From Mobula hypostoma (lineage: Eukaryota), in assembly GCF_963921235.1 (NCBI RefSeq), contig NC_086097.1, positions 176,082,001 through 176,146,000 of the forward strand: a stretch of 64,000 nucleotides of DNA, given 5' to 3'. Below, one piece after another: positions 14,110 through 63,900 of this stretch. Positions within the stretch are counted from its first letter, which is position 1. Every line of letters starts with the position of its first letter. The notes beneath the pieces were generated by a model, which saw only the letters and a list, made by a program, of their open reading frames with translations, was not told the DNA's origin and did no database searches. A program made the translations under genes and the position numbers.

Positions 14110-14251
14110 GGGGTGTATGGGGTGTATTGGTCCTGACTAAGTATCAGGAAATGCCAATAGCGATTATATAGCTTCTCCCACCCAAGACAACTCCGCCTTC
14201 ATGTAGGACTTAGGTCCGGGTGCACCCTGTCTCGCTGAAGGAGCTCTGTCT
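14110..14251 (+). ncRNA. HDV-like self-cleaving ribozyme (minimal P4, CpG-decayed)
   Basis: Manual fold: P1 GGGGTGT/GCACCCT (14222-28, G1.U wobble); P2 CTCC/GGAG plus AGACA/TGTCT; P3 GCC/GGT; L3 TTCATGTA plus hairpin; J4/2 TGAA. Confidence 0.6.
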
Positions 14252-15747
14252 ATGGCGAATGTTTGGCGCCAGAAAAATAACCAGACCGATGGTGGTGGTG
14301 TCACCTAAAATCACCGAAGTCTCCGGCAGCAGGGAGATGGATTCCAAGCTTTGGTGGAGGATTGTCTTTGTTCAACAACAGCAAAGGTTGGGCGACGTCT
14401 AGTGTATGAATCGCAATTGGGAACACCAATAGAGGTCAAATGCTGTAGTTAGATGAGCACTGCGGCAACAGAAGGCAACGGCAAACCACTGTTGAACTTT
14501 CTGCCTAGTCAATCATGGAAAGAAACAAAAGAAGGAAACCAGACAACGGCGTGAATGGAGTTGAGTCTAATCAACAGAACAACACCTCGCTCGGTAGGGG
14601 TAGTCATGTGCTGCAGGTGACACCAGACCATCATCCAGAGACTGTAAGCAATAGGGAAAGGCTAAGGGTAGCAACATGGAACATCCGTACACTTCACCAG
14701 AAAGGAAAGTTGGACAACACATTAAATGAAATGAAAAGGTTGGAAGTTGATATCTTAGGCCTGTCAGAAATTAGAAATTAGATGGACCGACAGTGGCAAA
14801 TTCACTAAGAATAGTTCTCTGATAGTTCTCTGATAATGTATTCTACAGCGTGTGTATGGAGTTGGAATTATTTTAGTTAAATTAAGGGATAACCCTTTTA
14901 ACATTAGCATAATCCAAGCCTACGCACCAACAAATAATGCAGATGAAGAGGATATCAATAAGTTTTGAAGATCTCGACAGTGCTTATGAGCAATGTAAAT
15001 CTCATGATATAAAACTGGTCATGGGAGATTTTAACACCAAAGTTGGACAGGAAAGGGCCCTTTGGATTAGGAAAGAAAAATGAAAATGGAGAAGGGTTTA
15101 CTGATTGGTGTGTCAGAAACAACCAAGTGACCACCAATACTTGATATAAAAACTATCCATGTAGATTATGTACTTGGATTAGCCCTGGAGATAGAACAAG
15201 GAATCAAATAGATTTCATTACCATCAATGAACACTTTAGAAATAATATCACAAATTCTAAAGCTACCCAGGAGCAGTCTGTGGTTCAGATCATCATCCAG
15301 TAACAGCTACTATTAAAACAAAATTAAAGAAACTGAAACGTGGAAAAAAGAGAAAGTATATGTTGGGAGAACTTAAAAAAGATAGCATACTTAAGCAACA
15401 ATTCAGGACAGCTGTAGAAGAACATTTCAACAAAAACATAACAACACCTATTTGGGACAGATTTAAGTATGCTATACAGCGATCAGCAGAGGAGATAATC
15501 CCAGTACAAGAAATCCAACACACCAACAAGGGGTGGGTAACCCAAGAACTTCTAGATCTGATGGAACAAAGAAGCTTAGTGAAGAATAATGAAGTGCAAT
15601 ACAGAGAGCTAGACAGACAGACCAGACAATTATACAATATTGCAAAGGAAGAATGGCTGAATCAAAAATGCAATGAAGTAGAAGGCCATATTAACAACAG
15701 CAAAGAAATGCACAAGAAAATCAAGGAAATTACTGGAATTAAGAAAC
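14110..15747 (+). mobile_element. RTE-clade LINE 5' portion (5' UTR, APE endonuclease, linker); RT and 3' end absent
   Basis: GAAGGCAACGGCAAACCACT 5' UTR motif; RVATWNIRTL..DILGLSE, IIQAYAPT, MGDFNTKVG, NQIDFI, GSDH APE motifs with stops and frameshifts. Confidence 0.9.
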
Positions 15748-16262
15748 CGTCTATCCACGGCCTCCTCTACTGTAAAGATGAAGCCACACTTAGGTTGGAG
15801 GAACAACACCTTATATTCCGTCTGGGTAGCCTCTGTCCTGATGGCATGAACATCGACTTCTCTAACTTCCGCTAATGCCCCACCTCCCCTTTGTACCCCA
15901 TCCGTTATTTATTTATATACACATATTCTTTCTCTCCTTTTTCTCCCTTTGTCCCTCTGACTATAGCCCTTGCCCATCCTTTGGGTCCCCCCCCCATCTT
16001 TCTCCCTGGACCTCCTGTCCCATGATCCTCTCATATCCCTTTTGCCAATCAACTGGTCCAGCTCTTGGCTCCATCCCTCCCCCTCCTGTCTTCTCCTATC
16101 GTTTTGGATCTCCCCTCCCCCTCCCACTTCCAAATCTCTTTACTAGCTCTTCCTTCAGTTAGTCCTGACAAAGGGTCTCGGCCCGAAACGTCGACTGTAC
16201 CTCTTCCTAGAGATACTGCCTGGCCTGCTGCGTAAACCAGCAACTTTGATGTGTGTTGTTTC
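15748..16262 (+). mobile_element. Penelope-like element 3' end / pseudo-LTR
   Basis: SIHGLLYCKDEATLRLEEQHLIFRLGSL..NIDFSNFR*; near-identical to 34360-34905 and 39801-40315. Confidence 0.9.
16161..16196 (+). ncRNA. Minimal type-I hammerhead ribozyme (core G->A variant)
   Basis: AGTC-CTGACAA-AGGGTCTCGGCCC-GAAA-CG-TC-GACT; differs from the CUGANGA core at one base. Confidence 0.7.
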
Positions 16263-34359: not shown

Positions 34360-36027
34360 GGAATTCTGCAGATGCTGGAAATTCAAGCAACACACATCAA
34401 AGTTGCTGGTGAACGCAGCAGGCCAGGCAGCATCCCGAGGAAGAGGTACAGTCAACGTTTCAGGCCGAGACCCTTCGTCAGGACTAACTGAAGGAAGAGT
34501 GAGTAAGGGATTTGAAAGTTGGAGGGGGAGGGGGAGATCCAAAATGATAGGAGAAGACAGGAGGGGGAGGGATAGAGCTGAGAGCTGGACAGGTGATAGG
34601 CAAAAGTGGATACGAGAGGATCATGGGACAGGAGGTCCGGGAAGAAAGACAAGGGGGGGGGTTGACCCAGAGGATGGGCAAGAGGTATATTCAGAGGGAC
34701 AGAGGGAGAAAAAGGAGAGTGAGAGAAAGAATGTGTGCATAAAAATGAGTAACAGATGGGGTACGAGGGGGAGGTGGGGCCTAGCGGAAGTTAGAGAAGT
34801 CGATGTTCATGCCATCAGGTTGGAGGTTACCCAGACGGAATATAAGGTGTTGTTCCTCCAACCTGAGTGTGGCTTCATCTTTACAGTAGAGGAGGCCGTG
34901 GATAGACATGTCAGAATGGGAATGGGATGTGGAATTAAAATGTGTGGCCACTGGGAGATCCTGCTTTCTCTGGTGGACAGAGCGTAGATGTTCAGCAAAG
35001 CGGTCTCCCAGTCTGCGTCGGGTCTCGCCAATATATAAAAGGCCACATCGGGAGCACCGGACGCAGTATATCACCCCAGTCGACTCACAGGTGAAGTGTT
35101 GCCTCACCTGGAAGGACTGTTTGGGGCCCTGAATGGTGGTAAGGGAGGAAGTGTAAGGGCATGTGTAGCACTTGTTCCGCTTACACAGATAAGTGCCAGG
35201 AGGGAGATCAGTGGGGAAGGATGGGGGGGACGAATGGACAAGGGAGTTGTGTAGGGAGCGATCCCGGTGGAATGCAGAGAGAGGCGGGGAGGGAAAGATG
35301 TGCTTAGTGGTGGGATCCCGTTGGAGGTGGCGGAAGTTATGGAGAATAATATGTTGGACCCGGAGGCTGGTGGGGTGGTAGGTGAGGACCAGGGGAACCC
35401 TATTCCTAGTGGGGTGGTGGGAGGATGGAGTGAGAGCAGATGTACGTGAAATGGGGGAGATGCATTTAAGAGCAGAGTTGATAGTGGAGGAAGGGAAGCC
35501 CCTTTCTTTAAAAAAGGAAGACATCTCCCTCGTCCTAGAATGAAAAGCCTCATCCTGAGAGCAGATGCGGCGGAGACAGAGGAATTGCGAGAAGGGGATG
35601 GGGTTTTTGCAAGAGACAGGGTGAGAAGAGGAATAGTCCAGATAGCTGTGAGAGTCAGTAGGCTTATAGTAGATATCAGTGGATAAGCTGTCTCCAGAGA
35701 CAGAGACAGAAAGATCTAGAAAGGGGAGGGAGGTGTCGGAAATGGACCAGGTAAACTTGAGGGCAGGGTGAAAGTTGGAGGCAAAGTTAATAAAGTCAAC
35801 GAGTTCTGCATGCGTGCAGGAAGCAGCGCCAATGCAGTCGTCGATGTAGCGAAGGAAAAGTGGAGGACAGATACCAGAATAGGCACGGAACATAGATTGT
35901 CCCACAAACCCAACAAAAAGGCAGGCCTAGCTAGGACCCATACGGGTGCCCATAGCTGGGCATAGCTAGGACCCATACGGGTGCCCATAGCTAGGCATAG
36001 CTAGGACCCATACAGGTGCCCATTGCC
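34360..36027 (-). mobile_element. Young Penelope-like element, 5'-truncated (RT C-terminal half, GIY-YIG, pseudo-LTR)
   Basis: 374-aa ORF 34781-35905: FLRYIDD, FLDL, YYKPTD, VIYCVRCSRCGLLYIGET; inserted in a minus-strand CR1 3' end. Confidence 0.95.
34449..34486 (-). ncRNA. Minimal type-I hammerhead ribozyme (intact core)
   Basis: Minus strand AGTC-CTGACGA-AGG GTCTCGG CCT-GAAA-CG-TT-GACT: stem I AGTC/GACT, CUGANGA and GAAA cores, palindromic CG stem III. Confidence 0.85.
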
Positions 36028-50426: not shown

Positions 50427-50929
50427 ACATGTCACCATTTACAACCCTGAGATTAATTTTCCTGTGGGAATACTCAGCAAATCTGTAGAATAGTAACTAC
50501 AACAGAGTCAATGAAAGATCAAGTGGTGTGCAAAAGACAACTGTGAAAATGCAAATATAAATAAATAGCAATAAATAATATGTGATAACAAAATAAAGAG
50601 TCCCTCAAAGAGAGATCATTAAAGAGGAACATCTCAATGGATGGCTAACTGAGTGTAGTTATTCCCTTTTGTTCAAGAGTCTGATAGTTGAGGGGTAATA
50701 ACTGTTCTTGAACCTGGTGATGTGAATTCTGAGGCCCTTACCTGATGGCAGCAGTGACAAAAGATCATGGCCTGGGTGGTGGGAATCTCTGATGATGGAT
50801 GCTGCTTTCCTGTGGCAGTGTTTCATGTAGATATGCTCAATGGTTGGGAGGGCTTTAGCAATGATGTACTGGGCCAAAACCACTAATTTTGTAGGAGTTT
50901 CCATTCAACAGCATTCTATACCAAGCCAT

Positions 50930-51120
50930 GGGGTGTATGGGGTGTCAGGGAGGGGTAGCACCATTGGTGGGGAACATGTCGTGTCCTTTTCAAGGCGGTT
51001 AGTCCACCTTCGGTCCCCACCTGGCACTCAGCTATCACTTTGTGGCTCCTCGTAGCTGTTTGCATGTGACAGAGGCCACATCCCGGGCAACGGCTTCGAC
51101 AAGCCGGCTAAACCAGGTGA
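50930..51120 (+). ncRNA. HDV-like self-cleaving ribozyme
   Basis: P1 GGGGTGT/ACATCCC (51078-84); P2 TCACTTTGT/ACCAGGTGA; P3 GGC/GCC; L3 TCCTCG..; P1.1 CC/GG; GCAA; P4 CGGCTT/AAGCCG; J4/2 G-C(51108)-TAA. Confidence 0.8.
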
Positions 51121-51502
51121 GGGTAGCCGATGGGTCTCAAACCCTCGGTGAGATAGGGAGTTGTCTATCTCAGCATGTGAAGACAGACTCCGGCGGATTG
51201 AGCGGATGAGACCACTGGAAGGTCCAACAGTCAAGAAGGCGGTCTCTGCAAGCATTGTGGAATGTGTAGAGCAGGACAAGACACAGAAAACGTCCTGGTC
51301 ATCCACTGCACCTAGTCCCATCTCCAGCCGTCTCGACTCTGTCTTGCCACTGGATCCAGATGGGAATTGGGAAGAGAGAGTGAGGCTGACGCTGCGCAAC
51401 TCTCCCTCACTTAAATCCAAATCACGCGCTAGTCTCGACACCATCGCAATGGTGTCGAGGTCCTCATTGACATTGACGATGGATGAACATCACATCATCA
51501 TC
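50931..51502 (+). mobile_element. Non-coding non-autonomous RTE-type retroposon, full length
   Basis: Perfect 13-bp TSD ATACCAAGCCATG (50918-30, 51503-15); (CAT)n tail; 5' start shared with the RTE at 14110; inserted in a minus-strand Rex1 fragment (~50065-52460). Confidence 0.85.
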
Positions 51503-53123
51503 ATACCAAGCCATGATGCAGTCAGTGAAATCACTGCCCACTGCACTTCTATAGAAGTTTGTTAAAGTTTTAGGTGTCAAGCTGAAGTTCTGCAGTTTCT
51601 GAAGGAAGTATAGGTTCAACCATGCTTTCTTCAAAATTGCATTTATGTGCTGACTCCAGGACAGATCCTCTGAAAATGGTAACACACAGGAATTTAAAAT
51701 TACTAACCTTCTAAACTTCTGATCCTTTGATGAGGGCTGGCTCATGGATCTCCGGTTTCCCTCTCCTTCCTCTACAATCAGTTCCTTGGTCTTGCTGACA
51801 CTGAGTGAAAGGTTGTTGTTAGGACATCACCTAGTCAAATGTTCAATCTCCCTTCTGTATGCTGATTCATCACTACCTTTGATTTGGCCTAAAAAAAGTG
51901 GTGTTATCAGCAAATTTGAGTATGGTATTGGAGCTGTGCTTAGCCACGCAGTCATTGGTGTAAAGCGAGTAGAACAGGGGGCTACACACACAGCCTTGTG
52001 GTGTACCTGGGCTGATGGAGATTGTGGAGGGAATGTTGCCAATCCGAACTGACTGGAGAAGACAGGAAATCTAGGATCCAATTGCACATGGAGGTATTGA
52101 GGACAAGGTATTGGAGTTTATTGTTTAGCTTTGAGGGGATAATAGTATTGCATGCTGTGTAGTCAACAAAGAGCACCCTGATATATGCATCTCTGCTGTA
52201 CAGATGCTCCAGGATTGAGTGACGAGCCAATGAAATGGCATCTGCTCTGGATCTGTGGCTCTAGTAGGCAAACTGGAGTGAACTCAAGCTTCCTCTCAGG
52301 CAAGGGCTGTTATGTTTCATCACCACCCTCTCAAAACACTTCATCACTGTGGATGTAAGTGGAAATGGTCTATAGTCATTGAGGCAGGTCACCATGCTCT
52401 TCTTGGGCACTGGTATAATTGAAGGCAGCTTGAAGCAGGAGGGTACCACACACTGCCAAAATGAGAGGTTAAATACTATGAGGAAGTGAGAAATTAAGTA
52501 CATTGAGGTAGTAAAGAGAAACCAGAATGTAGAATACAGTACTGAATAAAACTGAGATGATATTGCATACGTCAGTACCATGCACTAGGAGTACTCAGAG
52601 GCCCTGTTTAAACTGGGGAACAAGACCACTACATCACATGTCATGGCATATGATATGAAATTTGTCTAGTGTCAAAACATAACAATCACTATAAATTACA
52701 AGGATAAATAAACAAAGCAAATAAAAACAAAGTGGTTTTCTTGGGTTCATGAACTGTGCAGAAACCTGATGACTGGGAGGAAGAAGCTGTTCCTAACTCA
52801 TTGAGTGTGGATGATCAGACTCCCTGAACCTCCTCTTTTTTATGCACAATTGATAAGGAGAACTTGACACACCTACTGTACACAAGCCCCCACATCTCTG
52901 GCTGACCCTGTAATTTCAGTCTCTGAGACTGACATCAGGGCATCCTTCAAGAAGTTAAATCCATGAAAAGTGTCCGATCCAAACAGGGTACACGCTCAAG
53001 TACTTAAGATTTTTGGAGACCAACTGGCTGAAGATTTTACAAACATATTCAATCTCTCACTCCTGTGGTCTGAGGTTCCCACCTGCTGCGGAAAGTCATC
53101 TATTCTACCAGTGCCCAAGGTGA

Positions 53124-56100
53124 ATTTCTGATTTTTGGAAAAAAGGCAGTTTTTACCACTCGGGGTAAAAGAGAGGCAAGACTGTGTAGGCGCATGACGT
53201 CAGCTAGTAGAGCGCGAAAGGTTTAAAAAGAAGACCGCCATATCCAGTGGGCAGTGTTCGGAGCGGGCAGCGGAGTGAGAGTCAGCAGAGTGATAGGGCT
53301 TTGGCTCAATGGTCTTAGGCGGTAATGGGACAAGGTGAGGTAGGTTTACTGGAGTCATTTGCGGAAAGGAGGAAGTATGTGTGTGAGGCCAGTTTTCTGT
53401 GCTCGGTGTCAGATGTGGGAGGTCCTGGAGTCTCCCAGCTTCCTGGATGGCCATATCTGCACCCAGTGTGTCGAGCTGCAACTCCTAAGGGACTGAGTTA
53501 GGGAACTGGAGATGCAGCTCGATGACCTTTGTCTGGTCAGGGAGAGTGAGGAGATGATAGAAAGGAGTTAAGGCAGGTGGTCACACTGGGGCTACGGGAG
53601 ACAGACAAGTGGGTCACAGTCAGGAGGGGCAAGGGGAAGAGTCAGGTACCAGAGAGTACCCCTGTGGCAGTACTCCTTGACAATAAGTACTCCTGTTTGA
53701 GTACTGTTGGGGGAAGCAACAGTGGCCGTACCTCTGGCACAGAGTCTGGCCCTGTGGCTCGGAAGGGTAGGGAAAGGAAGAGGAAGGCAGTAGTGATAGG
53801 GGACTCGATAGTTAGGGGGTCAGACAGGTGATTCTGTGGACACAGGAAAGAAACTCTGATGGTAGTTTGTCTCCCAGGTGCCAGGGTCCGGGATATTTCA
53901 GATCGCGTCCAAGATATCCTGCAGTGGGAGGGAGAACAGCCAGAGGTCGTGGTACATATTGGTACCAATGACATAGGTAGGAAAAGGGAGGAGGTCCTGA
54001 AAAAACAGTACAGGGAATTAGGAAGGAAGTTGAGAAGCAGGACCGCAAAGGTAGTAATCTCAGAATTACTGCCTGTGCCACGTGACAGTGAGAACAGGAA
54101 TAGAATGAGGTAGAGGATAAATACGTGGCTGAGGGATTGGAGCAGGGAGCAGGGATTCAGATTTCTGGATCATTGGGACCTCTTTTGGGGCAGGTGTGAC
54201 CTGTACAAAAAGGATGGGTTGCACTTGAATCCCAGGGGGCCCAATATCCTGGCGGGGAGGTTTGCTAAGGCTACTGGGAAGAGTTTAAACTAGAATTGTT
54301 GGGGGGTGGGAACCGAACTGAAGAGACTGGGGAAGAGGAGGTTGGCTCACAAACAGAGAAAGCTCATAGACAGTGCGAGAGGGAGGATAGGCAGGTGATA
54401 GAGAAGGGATGTGCTCAGACCAAAAGTTTGAGATGCATCTATTTTAATGCAAGGAGTGTTGTGAACAAAGTGGATGAGCTTAGAGCGTGGATCAGTACTT
54501 GGAGATATGATGTGGTGGCCACTACAGAGACTTGGATGGCTCAGGGACAGGAATGGTTACTTCAAGTGCCCAGTTTTAGATGTTTCAGAAAGGACAGGGA
54601 GGGAGGCAAAAGAGGTGGGGGCGTGGCACTGTTGATCAGAGATAGTGTCATGGCTGAAGAAAGGGTGGACGCCATGGAGGGATTGTCCACGGAGTCTCTG
54701 TGGGTGGAGGTTAAGAACAGGAAGGGGTCAATAACTCTGCTGGGTGTTTTTTATAGGCCACCCAATAGTAACAGGGATATCGAGGAGCAGATAGGGAAAC
54801 AGATCCTGGAAAGGTGTAATAATAACAGAGTTGTCGTGTTGAGAGATTTTAATTTCCTAAATATCGATTGGCATCTCCCTAGAGCAAGGGGTTTAGCTGG
54901 CGTAGAGTTCGTTAGATGTGTTCAGGAAGGTTTTTTGACAGAATATGTAGATAAGCCTACAAGATGAGAGGCTGTACTTGATTTGGTATTGGGAAATGAA
55001 CCTGGTCATGTGTCAGATCTCTCAGTGGGAGAGTATTTTGGAGATAGTGATCATAATTCTATCTCCTTTACAATAGCATTTTGGAAAGAGATAGGAACAG
55101 ACAAGTTAGAAAAGTGTTTAATTGGAGTAAAGGGAATTATGAGGCTATCAGGCAGGAAATTGGAAGCTTAAATTGGAAACAGATGTTCTCAGGGAAAGGT
55201 ATGTAAGAAATGTGGCAAATGTTCAGGGGATATTTGCGTGGAGTTCTGCATAGGTACATTCCAAGGAGACAGGGAAGTTATGGTAGGGTACAGGAACCTT
55301 GGTGTACAAAGGCTGTAATAAGCCCAGTCAAAAAGAAAAGGAAAGCTTACAAAAGGTTCAGAGAGCTAGGTAATTTTAGAGATCTAGAAGATTATAAGGC
55401 TAATAGGAAGGAGCTTAAGAAGGAAATTAGGAGAGTCAGAAGGGGCCATGAGAAGGCCTTGGCAGGCAGGATTAAGGAAGACCCCAAGGCATTCTACAAG
55501 TATGTGAAGTGCAAGAAGATAAGACATAAAAGAATAGGACCTATGAAGTGTGACAGTGGGAAGGTGTGTATGGAACCGGAGAAAATAGCAGTGGTACTTA
55601 TTGAATACTTTACTTCAGTACTCACTATGGAAAAGGATCTTGGTGATTGTAGTGATGACTTGCAGCAGACTGAAAAGCTTGAGCATGTAGATATGAAGAA
55701 AGAGGATGTTGCTGGATCTTTTGGAAAGCATCAAGTTAGTTTAAGTCACCAAGACCGGATGAGATGTACCGCAGGCTACTGTGGGAAGCGAGGGAGGAAA
55801 TTGTTGAGCCTCTGGCGATGATCTTTGCATCACCAATGGGGACGGGAGAGGTTCTGGAGGATTGGGGGGTTGCGGATGTTGTTCCTTTATTCAAGAAAGG
55901 GAGTAGAGATAGCCGAGGAAATTATAGACCAGTGAGTCTTACCTCAGTAATTGATAAGTTGATGGAGAAGATCCTGAAAGGCAGGATTTATGGATATTTG
56001 GAGAGGTATAATATGATTAGGAATAGTCAACATGGTTTTGTCAAGGGCAGGTTGTGCCTTATGAGCCTGATTGAATTTTTTGAGGATGCGACTAAACACT

Positions 56101-57300
56101 TTGATGAAGGAAGAGCAGTCGATGTAGTGTATATGGATTTCAGCAAGGCACTTGATAAGGTACCCCATGCAAGGCTTATTGAGAAAGTAAGGAGGCATGG
56201 GATCCAAGAGGGCATTGTTTTGTGGATCCAGAACTGGTTTGCCCACAGAAGGCAAAGAGTGGTTGTAGACGAGTCATATTCTGTGTGGAGGTCGGTGTCC
56301 AGAGGTGTGCCTCAGAGATCTGTTCTGGGACCCTTACTCTTCATGATTCTTATAAATGACCTCGATGAGGAAGTGGAGGGATGGGTTAGTAAGTTTGATG
56401 ATGACACAAAGGTTGGAGGTGTTGTGGATAGTGTGGAGGGCTGTCAGAGGTTACAGTGGTTCATTGATAGGATGCAAAACTGGGCTGAGAAGTGGTAGAT
56501 GGAGTTCAACCCAAATAAGTGTGAAGTGATTCATTTTGGTAGGTCAAATATGATGGCAGAATATAGTATCAATGGTAAGACTCTTGGTAGTGTGGAGGAT
56601 CAGAGGGATCTTGGGGTCCAAGTCCATAGGACGCTCAAAGCAGCTGTGCACGTTGACTCTGTGGTTAAGAAGGTGTATGGTGTATTGGCCTTCATCAATG
56701 ATGGAATTGAGTTTAGGAGCTGAGAGGTAGTGTTTCAGCTATATAGGACCCTGGTCAGACCCTTTTGGAGTATTGTGCTCAGTTCTGGTCGTCTCACTAT
56801 ATGAAGGATGTGAAACCACAGAAAGGGTGCAGAGGAGATTTACAAAGATATTGCCTGGATTGGGGAGCATGCCTTATGAGAAATAGGTAGAGTGAACTTG
56901 GCCTTTTCTCCTTGGAGCGCCAGAGGATGAGAGGTGACCTGATAGAGGTGTATAAGATGATGAGAGGCATTGATATTGTGGATGGTCAGAGACTTTTTCC
57001 CAGGGCTGAAATGGCTGGCACTAGAGGGCACAGGTTTAAGGTGCTGGGGAGTAGGTACAGAGGAGATGTCAGGGGTAAGTTTTTCACTCAGAGAGTGGTG
57101 AGTGCATGGAATGGGCTGCTGGCAATGGTGGTGGAGGCGGATACGATAGGGTCTTTTAAGAGACTTTTGGATAGGTACATGGAGCTTAGGAAAATAGAGG
57201 GCTATAGGTAAGCCTAGTAATTTCTAGGGTAAGGACATGTTCGGCACAATTTTGTGGGCCGAAGGGCCTGTATTGTGCTGTAGATTTTCTATGTTTCTAT
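53124..57300 (+). mobile_element. Apparently full-length CR1 LINE (5' UTR, ORF1 zinc finger + SGNH esterase, ORF2 APE-RT), inactivated by stops and frameshifts
   Basis: ORF1 MCVRPVFCARC from 53377; IYFNARS, YRPPNS, NYRPVSLTS, YMDFSKA, KFDDDTK; (TTTCTATG)n tail. Splits a Rex1 fragment (~52860-58400). Confidence 0.95.
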
Positions 57301-60950: not shown

Positions 60951-63900
60951 TGATGGCAGGGGCATGGTAGAGGAATCTTTCAAATCCTGGTGAGGGGTGG
61001 GTTTAGGGCAATCCACCAAAACACATTTAGGTTAACCCCCCTTATCTATGATATGTCTTTTTTCGCTGTTCCAAAATGTGGAATGGGCCTAAGGGGATGT
61101 TGGTGTGCATCATGGCAGACAAAACCAAACGAGGCAGAATATAGATCAACAGGAACCCAAGAGCGCTGTATGCCATTATGGGAGGCAGGAAAAAGGTGCA
61201 AGAAACTTGAATTTACTGAAGAGGATGGAACATTGTTGAGAGACCGTCTAGGTGGTTGTGGCATCAGGGATAAAACCGCCTGGCACTTGTAACAGCTGCC
61301 TGTATACCAGTTTAGCTATGGATGACTGCAGGTCCTCTTTGGAGCTGTTCTGAGCCCCAGCAGGACCCATGGGAGGTGATTATGCCAACACCCATCCATC
61401 AGGGCAGCCCCCAGCGCAGCCTTTAAGGAGCGGTGAAACTACTTGCATAGGCCATTGGACTGCAGTTGATATGCTAAGGTGCTGTAGCCAGACACTGAGG
61501 TTTTGGGTCATTGCAGCCCAGAGGTCTGATATAAACTGGGGACTGCGGTCAGAGGAATTATCAGATGGGCTGATAATGGACTGAGTAACCCAGGTCCTGA
61601 TGAATGCTCGAACCATGTCTGTGGCCATCATTGATGCTAGAGGAATGACCTCTGGCCACCTGGTGGTACAGCGCACCATAGTAAGGAGGTACGGGAAGCC
61701 ATGGGAGGAGTGGAAGGGGATCAAAAAGGTCCAGATTGACACGGTCAAACCGTCGCTCAGGGACCTTAAAAGGTGCCAATGGTGCTTGGATTTGGCGGTT
61801 AATTTTTGCCTGCGGGCACTCCACATAGGCTGCAGTCCAATCACACATGTCCTTTCTAAGGCAGTGCAACCCAAACCAGACATCCCACCTCTCCCAGAAG
61901 TTCCGGGAGTCTCCCGCATATGAATAGTGGCTCCCTGATGCCCGCAAATTATATACAATATCATGGAAATCAATTTTTTTGAGAGCGAGCGAGTGAGAGA
62001 AAGCAAGCAAGAGAGAGCGTGAGAGCAACCACAAGAGAGCGCGCATGCGAGAGAGAGCGAGAGCGCGAGAGAGAGAGCGTGAGAGAACAAGAGAGAAAAC
62101 AAGAGAGAAAGCGAGAGCGCGCCATGGCAGAGTGTTCCAAAAAATATAAAATGCACATCACCCCAGGCTACACTAAAGTGTACCCCTGCCTAATAGGGGT
62201 CAAAATAATGACAGTGTTGCTCGCTGCACTGTTTGCAACAGTGACTTTTCTATTGCCCATGGTGGGTTAAAATGTAAAAGACATGTTAATTAACATGTGT
62301 CATTCATTCATTAGCATAGCTAACGTTATTTAAACTAGCTGGCTAGCTGCTAAGGAGCTACTCTATTGCAGACATCCCACCTCTCCCAGAAGTTCTGGGA
62401 GTCTCCCGCAAATTGATGGTGCTATCTCCCTGAAATGAGTTTTTGCAGGGTGGGATGTCTGCGCAAACTTTAGTGCCAATTTCTGTGAGGCTGTCTGGCC
62501 TGGATGTGAGAGGCCATGTATGGAGTCAAAAACAATCCAATTCCAGTTTACAAGCATTATGGGGCAAGGGCAAGCAGTTGAGACATTGTTTGAGAAACCC
62601 CATCTTCCCTGAACTTAATATCAGGCAACTTCAGGCCTATGACCGTCGTTCGGTAAGCGTGGACCTCTGGGTCAGCAGTTTGGTTGGCTCCCATGCCAGC
62701 ATAGTCAACCCTGATGTGTATGGCCTCAAGGGCTGGCCGTGAGAGGCAATTGGCCACAGCATTATTTTTCCCCTTGATATGTTGTATATCAGTTGTGAAT
62801 TCTGATATGTAGGCCAGGTGGTATTGCTGCTGTAGAGACCTAAGGTCTAATATTCTGGCCACCATGTGCATGAGGGACTTGTGGTTAATGAACACTGTGA
62901 AATGGTGACCTGCTAGGAGAAAATGAAAAAGATGGACAGCCAGATAGAGACCCAGAAGGTCACGGTCAAACATGCTAAGCTTCCTTTTAGGGGAACAGGG
63001 CTGCCGGCTGAAGAAGGCGAGCAGCTGCCACACGCCTCCAACCAACCATTCATGCACAGCACCCACAGCATAGTCTGAAGCATCAGTAGTAATCGATATA
63101 GGTGCATTGGGGAGCGTGTGCCCCAGTGGGACTTGTTGGAAAGAGCTTGTTTGGTATCATCAAATGCCCTGGTCATGTCCTCTGACCAGTCAAGCACGAG
63201 ATTAGAGATATTGGCTTTTAACACACTATACAGAGGAAGCAAAGGTTCAGCAGTTCACAGAATAAAGTGGTGATGAAATTCACTATATGTAAAAACTCCT
63301 TTAGCTTTTTTAGTAGGGTGGGGTGGAGGGAAATCCAAAATAGTGGTTACTTTTGATAAGAGGGCTTTCATTCTTTCTGCAGAGATGCGATAGCTGAGTA
63401 AGTGAATGGTTGACAATCCAAATTGGCATTTAACAGGGTTAATAATCAACCCACATTGGCTTAAGCACTCGAAAAGTGTGCAGAAATGAGATATATGTTT
63501 GGATTTGGATGTACTGGCGATAAGTATGTCATCCAGGAAAACAAAAAGGAAATCTGAATCTTTTAATACAGAGTCCATCAGCTGTTGGAAAGCCAGCGCT
63601 GCATTTTTCAGCCTAAATGACAGGCACAAAAACTCAAAAAAGCCAAACCTGGTTATCACAGCCATTTTGGGAATGTCTTCTGAGCAGACAGCCACCTGAT
63701 GGTGGTCCCAAACTACAAACGTTTGTAGATCGAACTTGGAAAAAATTTAACTTTCTGGTTAAATGTACAGAGAAGTCCTGGATGTATGGCACTGGGTAAC
63801 AATCAAGGGTGGTGGCCTCACTAAGATATTGGTAATCAGCATATGAGTGGCAAACACCATCGGACTTAGGGACCATATGGAGATGTGAAGCCCAGGGGCT

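Follow-up and report, generated by a model that had tools for sequence, protein, structure and literature searches.

An additional helix in L3 of predicted HDV-like ribozymes that head RTE-type retroelements

Background

HDV-like ribozymes have been described at the 5' ends of several non-LTR retroelements, including R2, L1Tc/ingi, RTE and baggins (text sections of PMC3774820, PMC5786205 and PMC6765202). The predicted ribozymes presented here resemble them in their exact 5' position, in the order P1-P2-P3-P1.1-P4, in the CNRA motif, in a long and structured J1/2 and in being carried also by bipartite non-autonomous elements, and differ from them in L3, which is 7-8 nt long in the described ribozymes, with no such insert in the sections cited, and 21-29 nt long here, with a helix of its own. 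In R2, a comparable case, the element's 5' end is set by ribozyme cleavage (PMC3774820, in the sections cited). As described in parts of other papers, the J4/2 cytosine acts in the HDV family as a general acid together with a metal ion (PMC13635239), and such ribozymes release and protect the RNA of the element (PMC6765202, PMC11331408).

Other ribozymes are comparable in part. The Anopheles ribozyme drz-Agam-2-1 has, as here, a stable P1.2 in J1/2 and an extended P2; its peripheral domains are located in J1/2, and a helix in L3 is unmentioned in the portion of the paper cited (PMC4908430). Sea-urchin HDV-like ribozymes, in the part of the RNArobo supplement that covers them, have the 7-nt loop and the GT after P1' of our ribozyme B, and CPEB3 has an L3 of 7 nt and a weak P1.1 (excerpts of bioRxiv 2022.09.22.508989); in both, unlike B, P3' directly follows the 7-nt loop and P4 is present. 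The minimal HDV-like and theta ribozymes are comparable to B, whose best-supported fold has a mere 4-nt loop where P4 would be, but according to the sections of PMC10879173 cited they come from phage genomes, whereas B belongs to an animal LINE and has a long J1/2 and an L3 helix.

Results

The window, i.e. the whole stretch of 64,000 nt that was analysed (Mobula hypostoma, contig NC_086097.1, positions 176,082,001 to 176,146,000), contains two sites, A and B, both on the plus strand. Sequence comparison confirms them as predicted HDV-like ribozymes located at the exact 5' ends of what we take to be RTE-type retroelements, the labels RTE, BovB-like and RTE-1-like being presumed from architecture and motifs. 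Element A (50930..51502, about 570 nt) lies between a 12-bp target-site duplication copy (50918..50929) and the identical 12-mer at 51503-51514, and consists of the 5' part of a LINE 5' UTR, the last ~40 nt of the LINE and a short repeat tail. Since it matches the autonomous LINE L128 at both ends (92% over the first 522 nt of L128 and 32/41 at its 3' end), it is a bipartite non-autonomous derivative, of a type described for RTE in part of PMC5786205. L128 and a second A-lineage LINE, L129, encode a reverse transcriptase (PF00078), upstream of which tblastn detects an endonuclease-like region. Exact target-site duplications of at least 7 nt flank 8 of the 17 tailed A copies. Ribozyme B (14110..14251) is located at the 5' end of an endonuclease-encoding LINE, whose broken endonuclease-region ORF was found at 14509..15752 by tblastn of an intact copy; the enzyme is of the AP type (PF03372, above cut-off on copy L032). 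The LINE B protein is 26-29% identical to those of the A-lineage LINEs and well separated from them in an endonuclease tree of 12 rows. The genome (3.48 Gb) contains 2550 candidates for site A and 209 for site B.

Several other features of these elements deserve mention. At the L061-L089 junctions, the target-site duplication and G1 are in many A copies separated by one or two additional bases, frequently T. Two A copies (L077/L078) stand in head-to-tail tandem 576 nt apart, and one B copy (L352:1170-1460) has its 5' ribozyme region in the opposite orientation to the remainder of the element. A very abundant repeat of ~350 nt (L347-L376, motif count 6357) has a UTR motif in common with LINE B; our descriptor and Rfam detected no HDV-like core in it. 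Family E (L161-L189), a LINE ~50% identical to B, has a conserved and strongly structured 5' region of 250 nt; 15 of its 29 copies reach the 5' end, and none of these has an HDV-like core. The region has no Rfam match and may hold another 5' processing element. The window also contains another decayed LINE (54269-56495, plus strand) with endonuclease and reverse transcriptase matches, not RTE-like by tblastn, and two minus-strand ORFs (34784-35926 and 61383-62189) whose GIY-YIG and integrase-core matches are weak and fall short of the Pfam cut-offs; these ORFs are probably remnants of Penelope-like and LTR elements.

In ribozyme A, the 5' strand of P1 (50930..50936, with predicted cleavage just before G50930) pairs with P1' (51078-84) and is followed by the structured J1/2 domain or P1.2 (50939..51029), by the 5' strand of an extended P2 (51031..51043) and by that of P3 (GGC, 51044-46). 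Then come the canonical part of L3, TCCTCGT (7 nt, 51047-53), which holds the equivalents of U20, C21, C22 and G25, and, at the 3' end of L3, an insertion (51054..51074) made of A 51054, a hairpin (51055-51073) and G 51074. The segment 51075..51086 contains P3' (GCC, 51075-77), P1' and then the GG of P1.1; it precedes the P4 hairpin (51091..51106) and a segment with J4/2 and P2' (51107..51121; CTAA at 51108-11, P2' at 51112-21). CTAA corresponds to the CNRA of the published descriptor, and the position of the predicted catalytic C51108 is C in 10 of 11 aligned rows. P1 has 7 bp in both ribozymes and its first base, located at the 5' boundary, is G; L3 measures 28 nt in A and 21 nt in B, versus 7-8 nt in published descriptors.

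The window copy of A is decayed, with a G-U pair in P1 and a P2 damaged by an extra T and substitutions; its P1' reads ACATCCC, against ACACCCC family-wide. The first-pass annotation had correctly located the L3 hairpin in both ribozymes. The stem that it gave for A, CTGT with ACAG (51056-59 / 51069-72), is that of the window copy, whereas the family-wide stem has 5 bp (GCTGT/ACAGC): a C>A change at 51073, private to this copy, turned the closing G-C into G-A. Among the difference rows listed, the closing C is kept in all four outside runs covering the hairpin, from four organisms. The insert itself is kept in 30 copies each of A and B.

In ribozyme B, P1 is formed by 14110-16/14222-28, P1.2 extends over 14119-83, P2 is formed by 14185-94/14240-51 (4+5 bp, by inspection) and P3 by 14195-97/14219-21. 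From P3 onwards the order is GCC (14195-97), TTCATGT, A, hairpin, G, P3' GGT, P1' GCACCCT and GT; the insertion (14205..14218) contains, between its A and G flanks, the hairpin GGAC-TTAG-GTCC at 14206-17 that had been reported there, in which a recurrent A>G variant leaves a G-U pair in 5/30 copies. The best-supported fold replaces P4 by a 4-nt loop. The P2 register adjoining P3 sets the predicted catalytic C at 14235, with CTGAA in 29/30 copies; a second candidate site, C14256, is disfavoured, being polymorphic, with CGAA in just 8/30 copies. J4/2 then has 5 nt, a fifth base for which the antigenomic ribozyme offers a precedent (in the section of PMC2175327 cited) and which RNAMot versions of the published descriptor tolerate. 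A competing 6-bp helix between L3 and J4/2 would sequester both, and B was missed by a model built on the A lineage. The activity predicted from the sequence of B is less certain than that of A.

What the two L3 have in common had been described as a single form. The 7-nt L3, the hairpin between A and G, and P3' are indeed found in both; the loop, given as TYCNYG, reads TYCNNG-T-A across families. The compensatory swap of P3 (GGC/GCC in A, GCC/GGT in B) holds as well, and in the alignment the middle pair of P3 changes between G-C and C-G.

The position of the 5' boundary was examined in 28 A loci that were selected through their L3 motif, which lies 117 nt further downstream, hence without 5' bias. 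Copies start at G1 in 21/28 and within +4 in 25/28, and the DNA upstream is unrelated (two of the loci overlap and were both aligned to one copy; the other copy likewise begins at G1). Such starts are expected if cleavage occurs before G1, although they do not measure it. The tandem repeat said to open both ribozymes is exact over 7 nt in A, where the second GGGGTG closes the J1/2 hairpin, and shrinks in B to 6 nt, present in most copies. The J1/2 domain of A folds at -41.6 kcal/mol (z -3.0, with 0/200 shuffles as low), while z for the J1/2 hairpin is -1.3 in B and ranges from -3.3 to +0.4 across ten sequences. Family D (L130-L159) has two identical 9-nt repeats at its 5' end and a C-A mismatch atop P1. 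Among the 20 of its 30 copies with a 5' region (the other 10 have none), 9 start at +1 to +5, 8 between +6 and +11 and 3 further inside. From these repeats, cleavage at either P1 copy is possible, and the spread fits the duplicated-P1 model outlined in part of PMC3774820 and also plain truncation.

A pattern running from L3 through the insert to P1' has 1785 matches in the genome, versus 39 with a reversed control; of the first 100, 91 are of type A, 6 of type B and 1 of type C, and 2 have no relation to these. When 30 LINE loci were chosen instead by a downstream UTR motif, the core was present in 22, with the full insert in 21, a partly deleted one in 1 and a canonical L3 in none. Changes within a family are mostly neutral decay, and other families were therefore sought for comparison. 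With a pattern placing no constraint on the insert, 77 metagenome loci were obtained, of which 5 are homologues, one of them followed by a related endonuclease ORF; the model judged the remaining 72 to be chance matches. Judging from these homologues and the four outside runs, the variant occurs in other hosts too. Two matches on viral contigs look like coding DNA. Of 30 matches in prokaryotes, 12 had a pairable P3 and, by inspection, none an evident P2 with J4/2. One locus from another host (L222:1501-2180) is a bipartite element with a hairpin ribozyme and an A-like 3' tail, inserted in coding-like sequence.

An alignment of 11 rows, modelled with the five canonical helices and the L3 hairpin as a sixth, has 92% of its cells paired and 11 of its 25 pairs changed on both sides; 0/500 shuffles reach this pairing, and slid controls give 26-46%. 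The T, C, C and G of the canonical L3 are invariant in 11/11 rows, and the partner of P1.1 after P1' is GG or GT. Two-sided changes affect 3/9 pairs of P2 (94% of cells paired), 3/6 of P4 (83%) and one pair of P3; P1 is invariant and hence shows no covariation. In the L3 stem they affect 4/5 pairs, in agreement with the proposal that the hairpin is conserved and covarying: in the metagenome loci L240 and L234 the stem differs, with both sides of four pairs replaced. As these two are 79% alike, this amounts to one lineage contrast, to which B is additional; we estimate the probability of four Watson-Crick replacements by free variation at ~0.004, or ~0.02 counting G-U. The stem of B is a third, unrelated sequence in the same register, with the same A flank, G-C closure and G flank, and families C, D, A' and H have the stem of A in spite of divergent P4, J1/2 and 5' part of L3. 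The terminal loop varies in sequence and in length, from 4 to about 10 nt. When further stem sequences were sought in this genome, nothing was retrieved beyond A, B and C copies bearing mutations or deletions.

The support that these sequences lend to the hairpin is comparative and not thermodynamic, since on its own the P3-closed domain is no more stable than its shuffled versions (z -0.5 and -1.0). For this domain taken in isolation, the minimum-energy fold differs from the proposed stem in 3/7 sequences (window A, L234 and L260), and in L240 the stem forms and P3 does not. A different P3, using the proximal strand at 51055-57, had been named as the fold that would speak against the hairpin. 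As the active fold it is disfavoured: hairpin plus distal P3 lies below it by 0.2-7.6 kcal/mol in 7/7 sequences (marginally in L234), and it would put ~20 nt between P3' and P1', which are adjacent in the hairpin-less families F and G. It nevertheless stays pairable in the A lineage, in all 24 cells of the 8/8 hairpin-bearing rows, with one-sided changes only (2/3 pairs in B), and is possible as a folding intermediate.

Short loops were then sought, with 42 matches versus 2 in the control; 18 of the 42 belong to family F and 2 to family G. In both families L3 is plain, at 7 nt, and P3' immediately adjoins the P1' that the hairpin families also have. By comparison of these sequences, the insert is thus a clean block, an A, a stem and a G, set between the canonical loop and P3', and a discrete module that is optional because F and G do without it. 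The comparison supports an HDV-like fold to which an L3 helix has been added; 'variant' fits better than the 'subclass' first suggested, the hairpin being optional. Family G, an autonomous LINE, shares 65% identity with A' across 108 residues. In the endonuclease tree, in which G2 has no row and one D row is a long branch, G falls in an open fork, and gain versus loss of the hairpin is not polarised. Family C has the P4 and L3 letters of F and the P2, P3 and hairpin of A, which suggests an exchange of 5' modules between elements. Family F itself (L289-L314, e.g. L292:1488-1564) is a repeat of ~420 nt with a canonical HDV-like core and the L3 TCCAAGT. At loop position 5 it does not have the C demanded by published descriptors, and neither do families C and H and L222, so that this position of the descriptor is too strict as well.

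The RNArobo descriptors, in the section of PMC4870747 that gives them, fix L3 at 7-8 nt, written TYYHCG*Y or TNCNCGY, and limit J1/2 to at most 51 nt. With an L3 of 21-28 nt, the variant escapes them, as the first-pass annotation had argued; these elements are missed for other reasons too, their J1/2 being about 100 nt. An approximation of the published descriptor found 0/7 test sequences, again 0/7 with J1/2 relaxed, and 2/7 once an L3 insert was permitted; what made F, G, B, D and the window copy fail was something other than the insert. Rfam covariance models gave no ribozyme match in the window, in six representative loci (among them L313 and L309, which have no hairpin) or in four loci from two further families, and thus miss the sisters with a canonical L3 also. 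In the passages of text that the literature search covered, we found no L3 insertion or helix, and the sections covered of PMC3774820, PMC4035085, PMC10879173, PMC9901934, PMC4114689 and bioRxiv 2022.09.22.508989 mention none. We think it rather probable that the L3 helix is so far undescribed, though a drawn example may exist.

Discussion

We propose that a predicted HDV-like ribozyme, with its nested double pseudoknot, would cut RTE-type RNA from host read-through transcripts before G1 and would thereby set the element's 5' end; the fold and the boundary are observed, and the cleavage is what we infer from them. By analogy with the family, the J4/2 cytosine would serve as general acid together with a metal ion, and cleavage would release and protect the element RNA. 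The last positions of L3 probably face solvent. The extra helix buds from there, past the U20-G25 pair and P1.1. As the insert follows the equivalents of U20, C22 and G25, the catalytic nucleotides would, in three dimensions, be left in place and the active site need not be disturbed. The helix may be seen as an appendage that is optional, has become fixed in several lineages and stays paired under selection; its compact stem would shorten the effective loop and occupy a P3'-like strand otherwise prone to mispair with P3. We lean towards regarding the hairpin as a dispensable, neutral to mildly stabilising appendage of HDV-like ribozymes, and not as a requirement of the chemistry, since sister families with the same core have spread without it.

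The conserved A and G flanks suggest something more than a passive insert. The hairpin might be a functional sixth domain, whose A/G junction and helix dock on the core or bind an element protein or the translation machinery, tuning the rate or the use of the RNA. This would account for an A flank, a G-C closing pair and a G flank kept across three unrelated stem sequences, and for a stem that A, C and D have unchanged in spite of divergence in P4, in J1/2 and in the 5' part of L3, and it agrees with the great acceleration that peripheral domains can bring to HDV-like ribozymes (in the portion of PMC4908430 cited). We nevertheless find it unlikely, because the hairpin is absent in F and G, the latter an autonomous LINE, and because a terminal loop so variable in length and sequence argues against a fixed docking surface. 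A folding switch, in which P3 would first pair with the proximal strand (8-nt loop) and later rearrange, so that cleavage is delayed or damped, could exploit the order of transcription, the proximal strand being transcribed first; the early fold would be inactive, with P1' 20 nt away. The alternative P3 does pair in 24/24 cells, yet it has only one-sided changes, forms 2/3 pairs in B and is weak (-1.2 kcal/mol), and the leading G is equally explained as part of the hairpin closing pair, all of which makes a switch quite improbable.

It has also to be considered that the insertion crippled the ribozyme and left a structure acting as an exonuclease-resistant 5' cap or a protein signal, the 5' end being set otherwise, e.g. 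by an internal promoter. An HDV-like fold aids R2 templates partly by its structure and not by its activity (according to part of PMC11331408), the core of B is atypical and the window copy is mutated. However, hosts distant from one another have retained the catalytic C, CNRA, U20/G25 and P1.1, and copies start at G1, and we give this explanation very little credence. The dispensable appendage thus remains the reading that we prefer.

Conclusion

A broader interpretation, which we offer as tentative and somewhat doubtful, is that of an undescribed six-helix HDV form, in which a conserved junction of A, G-C stem and G emerges from the active-site loop. It would be a swappable 5' module among distant RTE lineages in many animals; its helix would serve a purpose in its own right, be it rate control or protein docking, and the form would account for a large part, so far overlooked, of the HDV-like ribozymes of animals. 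Thousands of genomic copies outside current searches are implied by our counts. Sister families of which one has the helix and the other lacks it (C versus F, A' versus G) make its effect directly testable, and the L3 site is a candidate insertion point beside the active site for engineered switches. Finally, published descriptors, in the sections that we cite, treat L3 as a fixed part of the catalytic core of 7-8 nt, and a natural helix at this place shifts the view of where the HDV fold tolerates additions.
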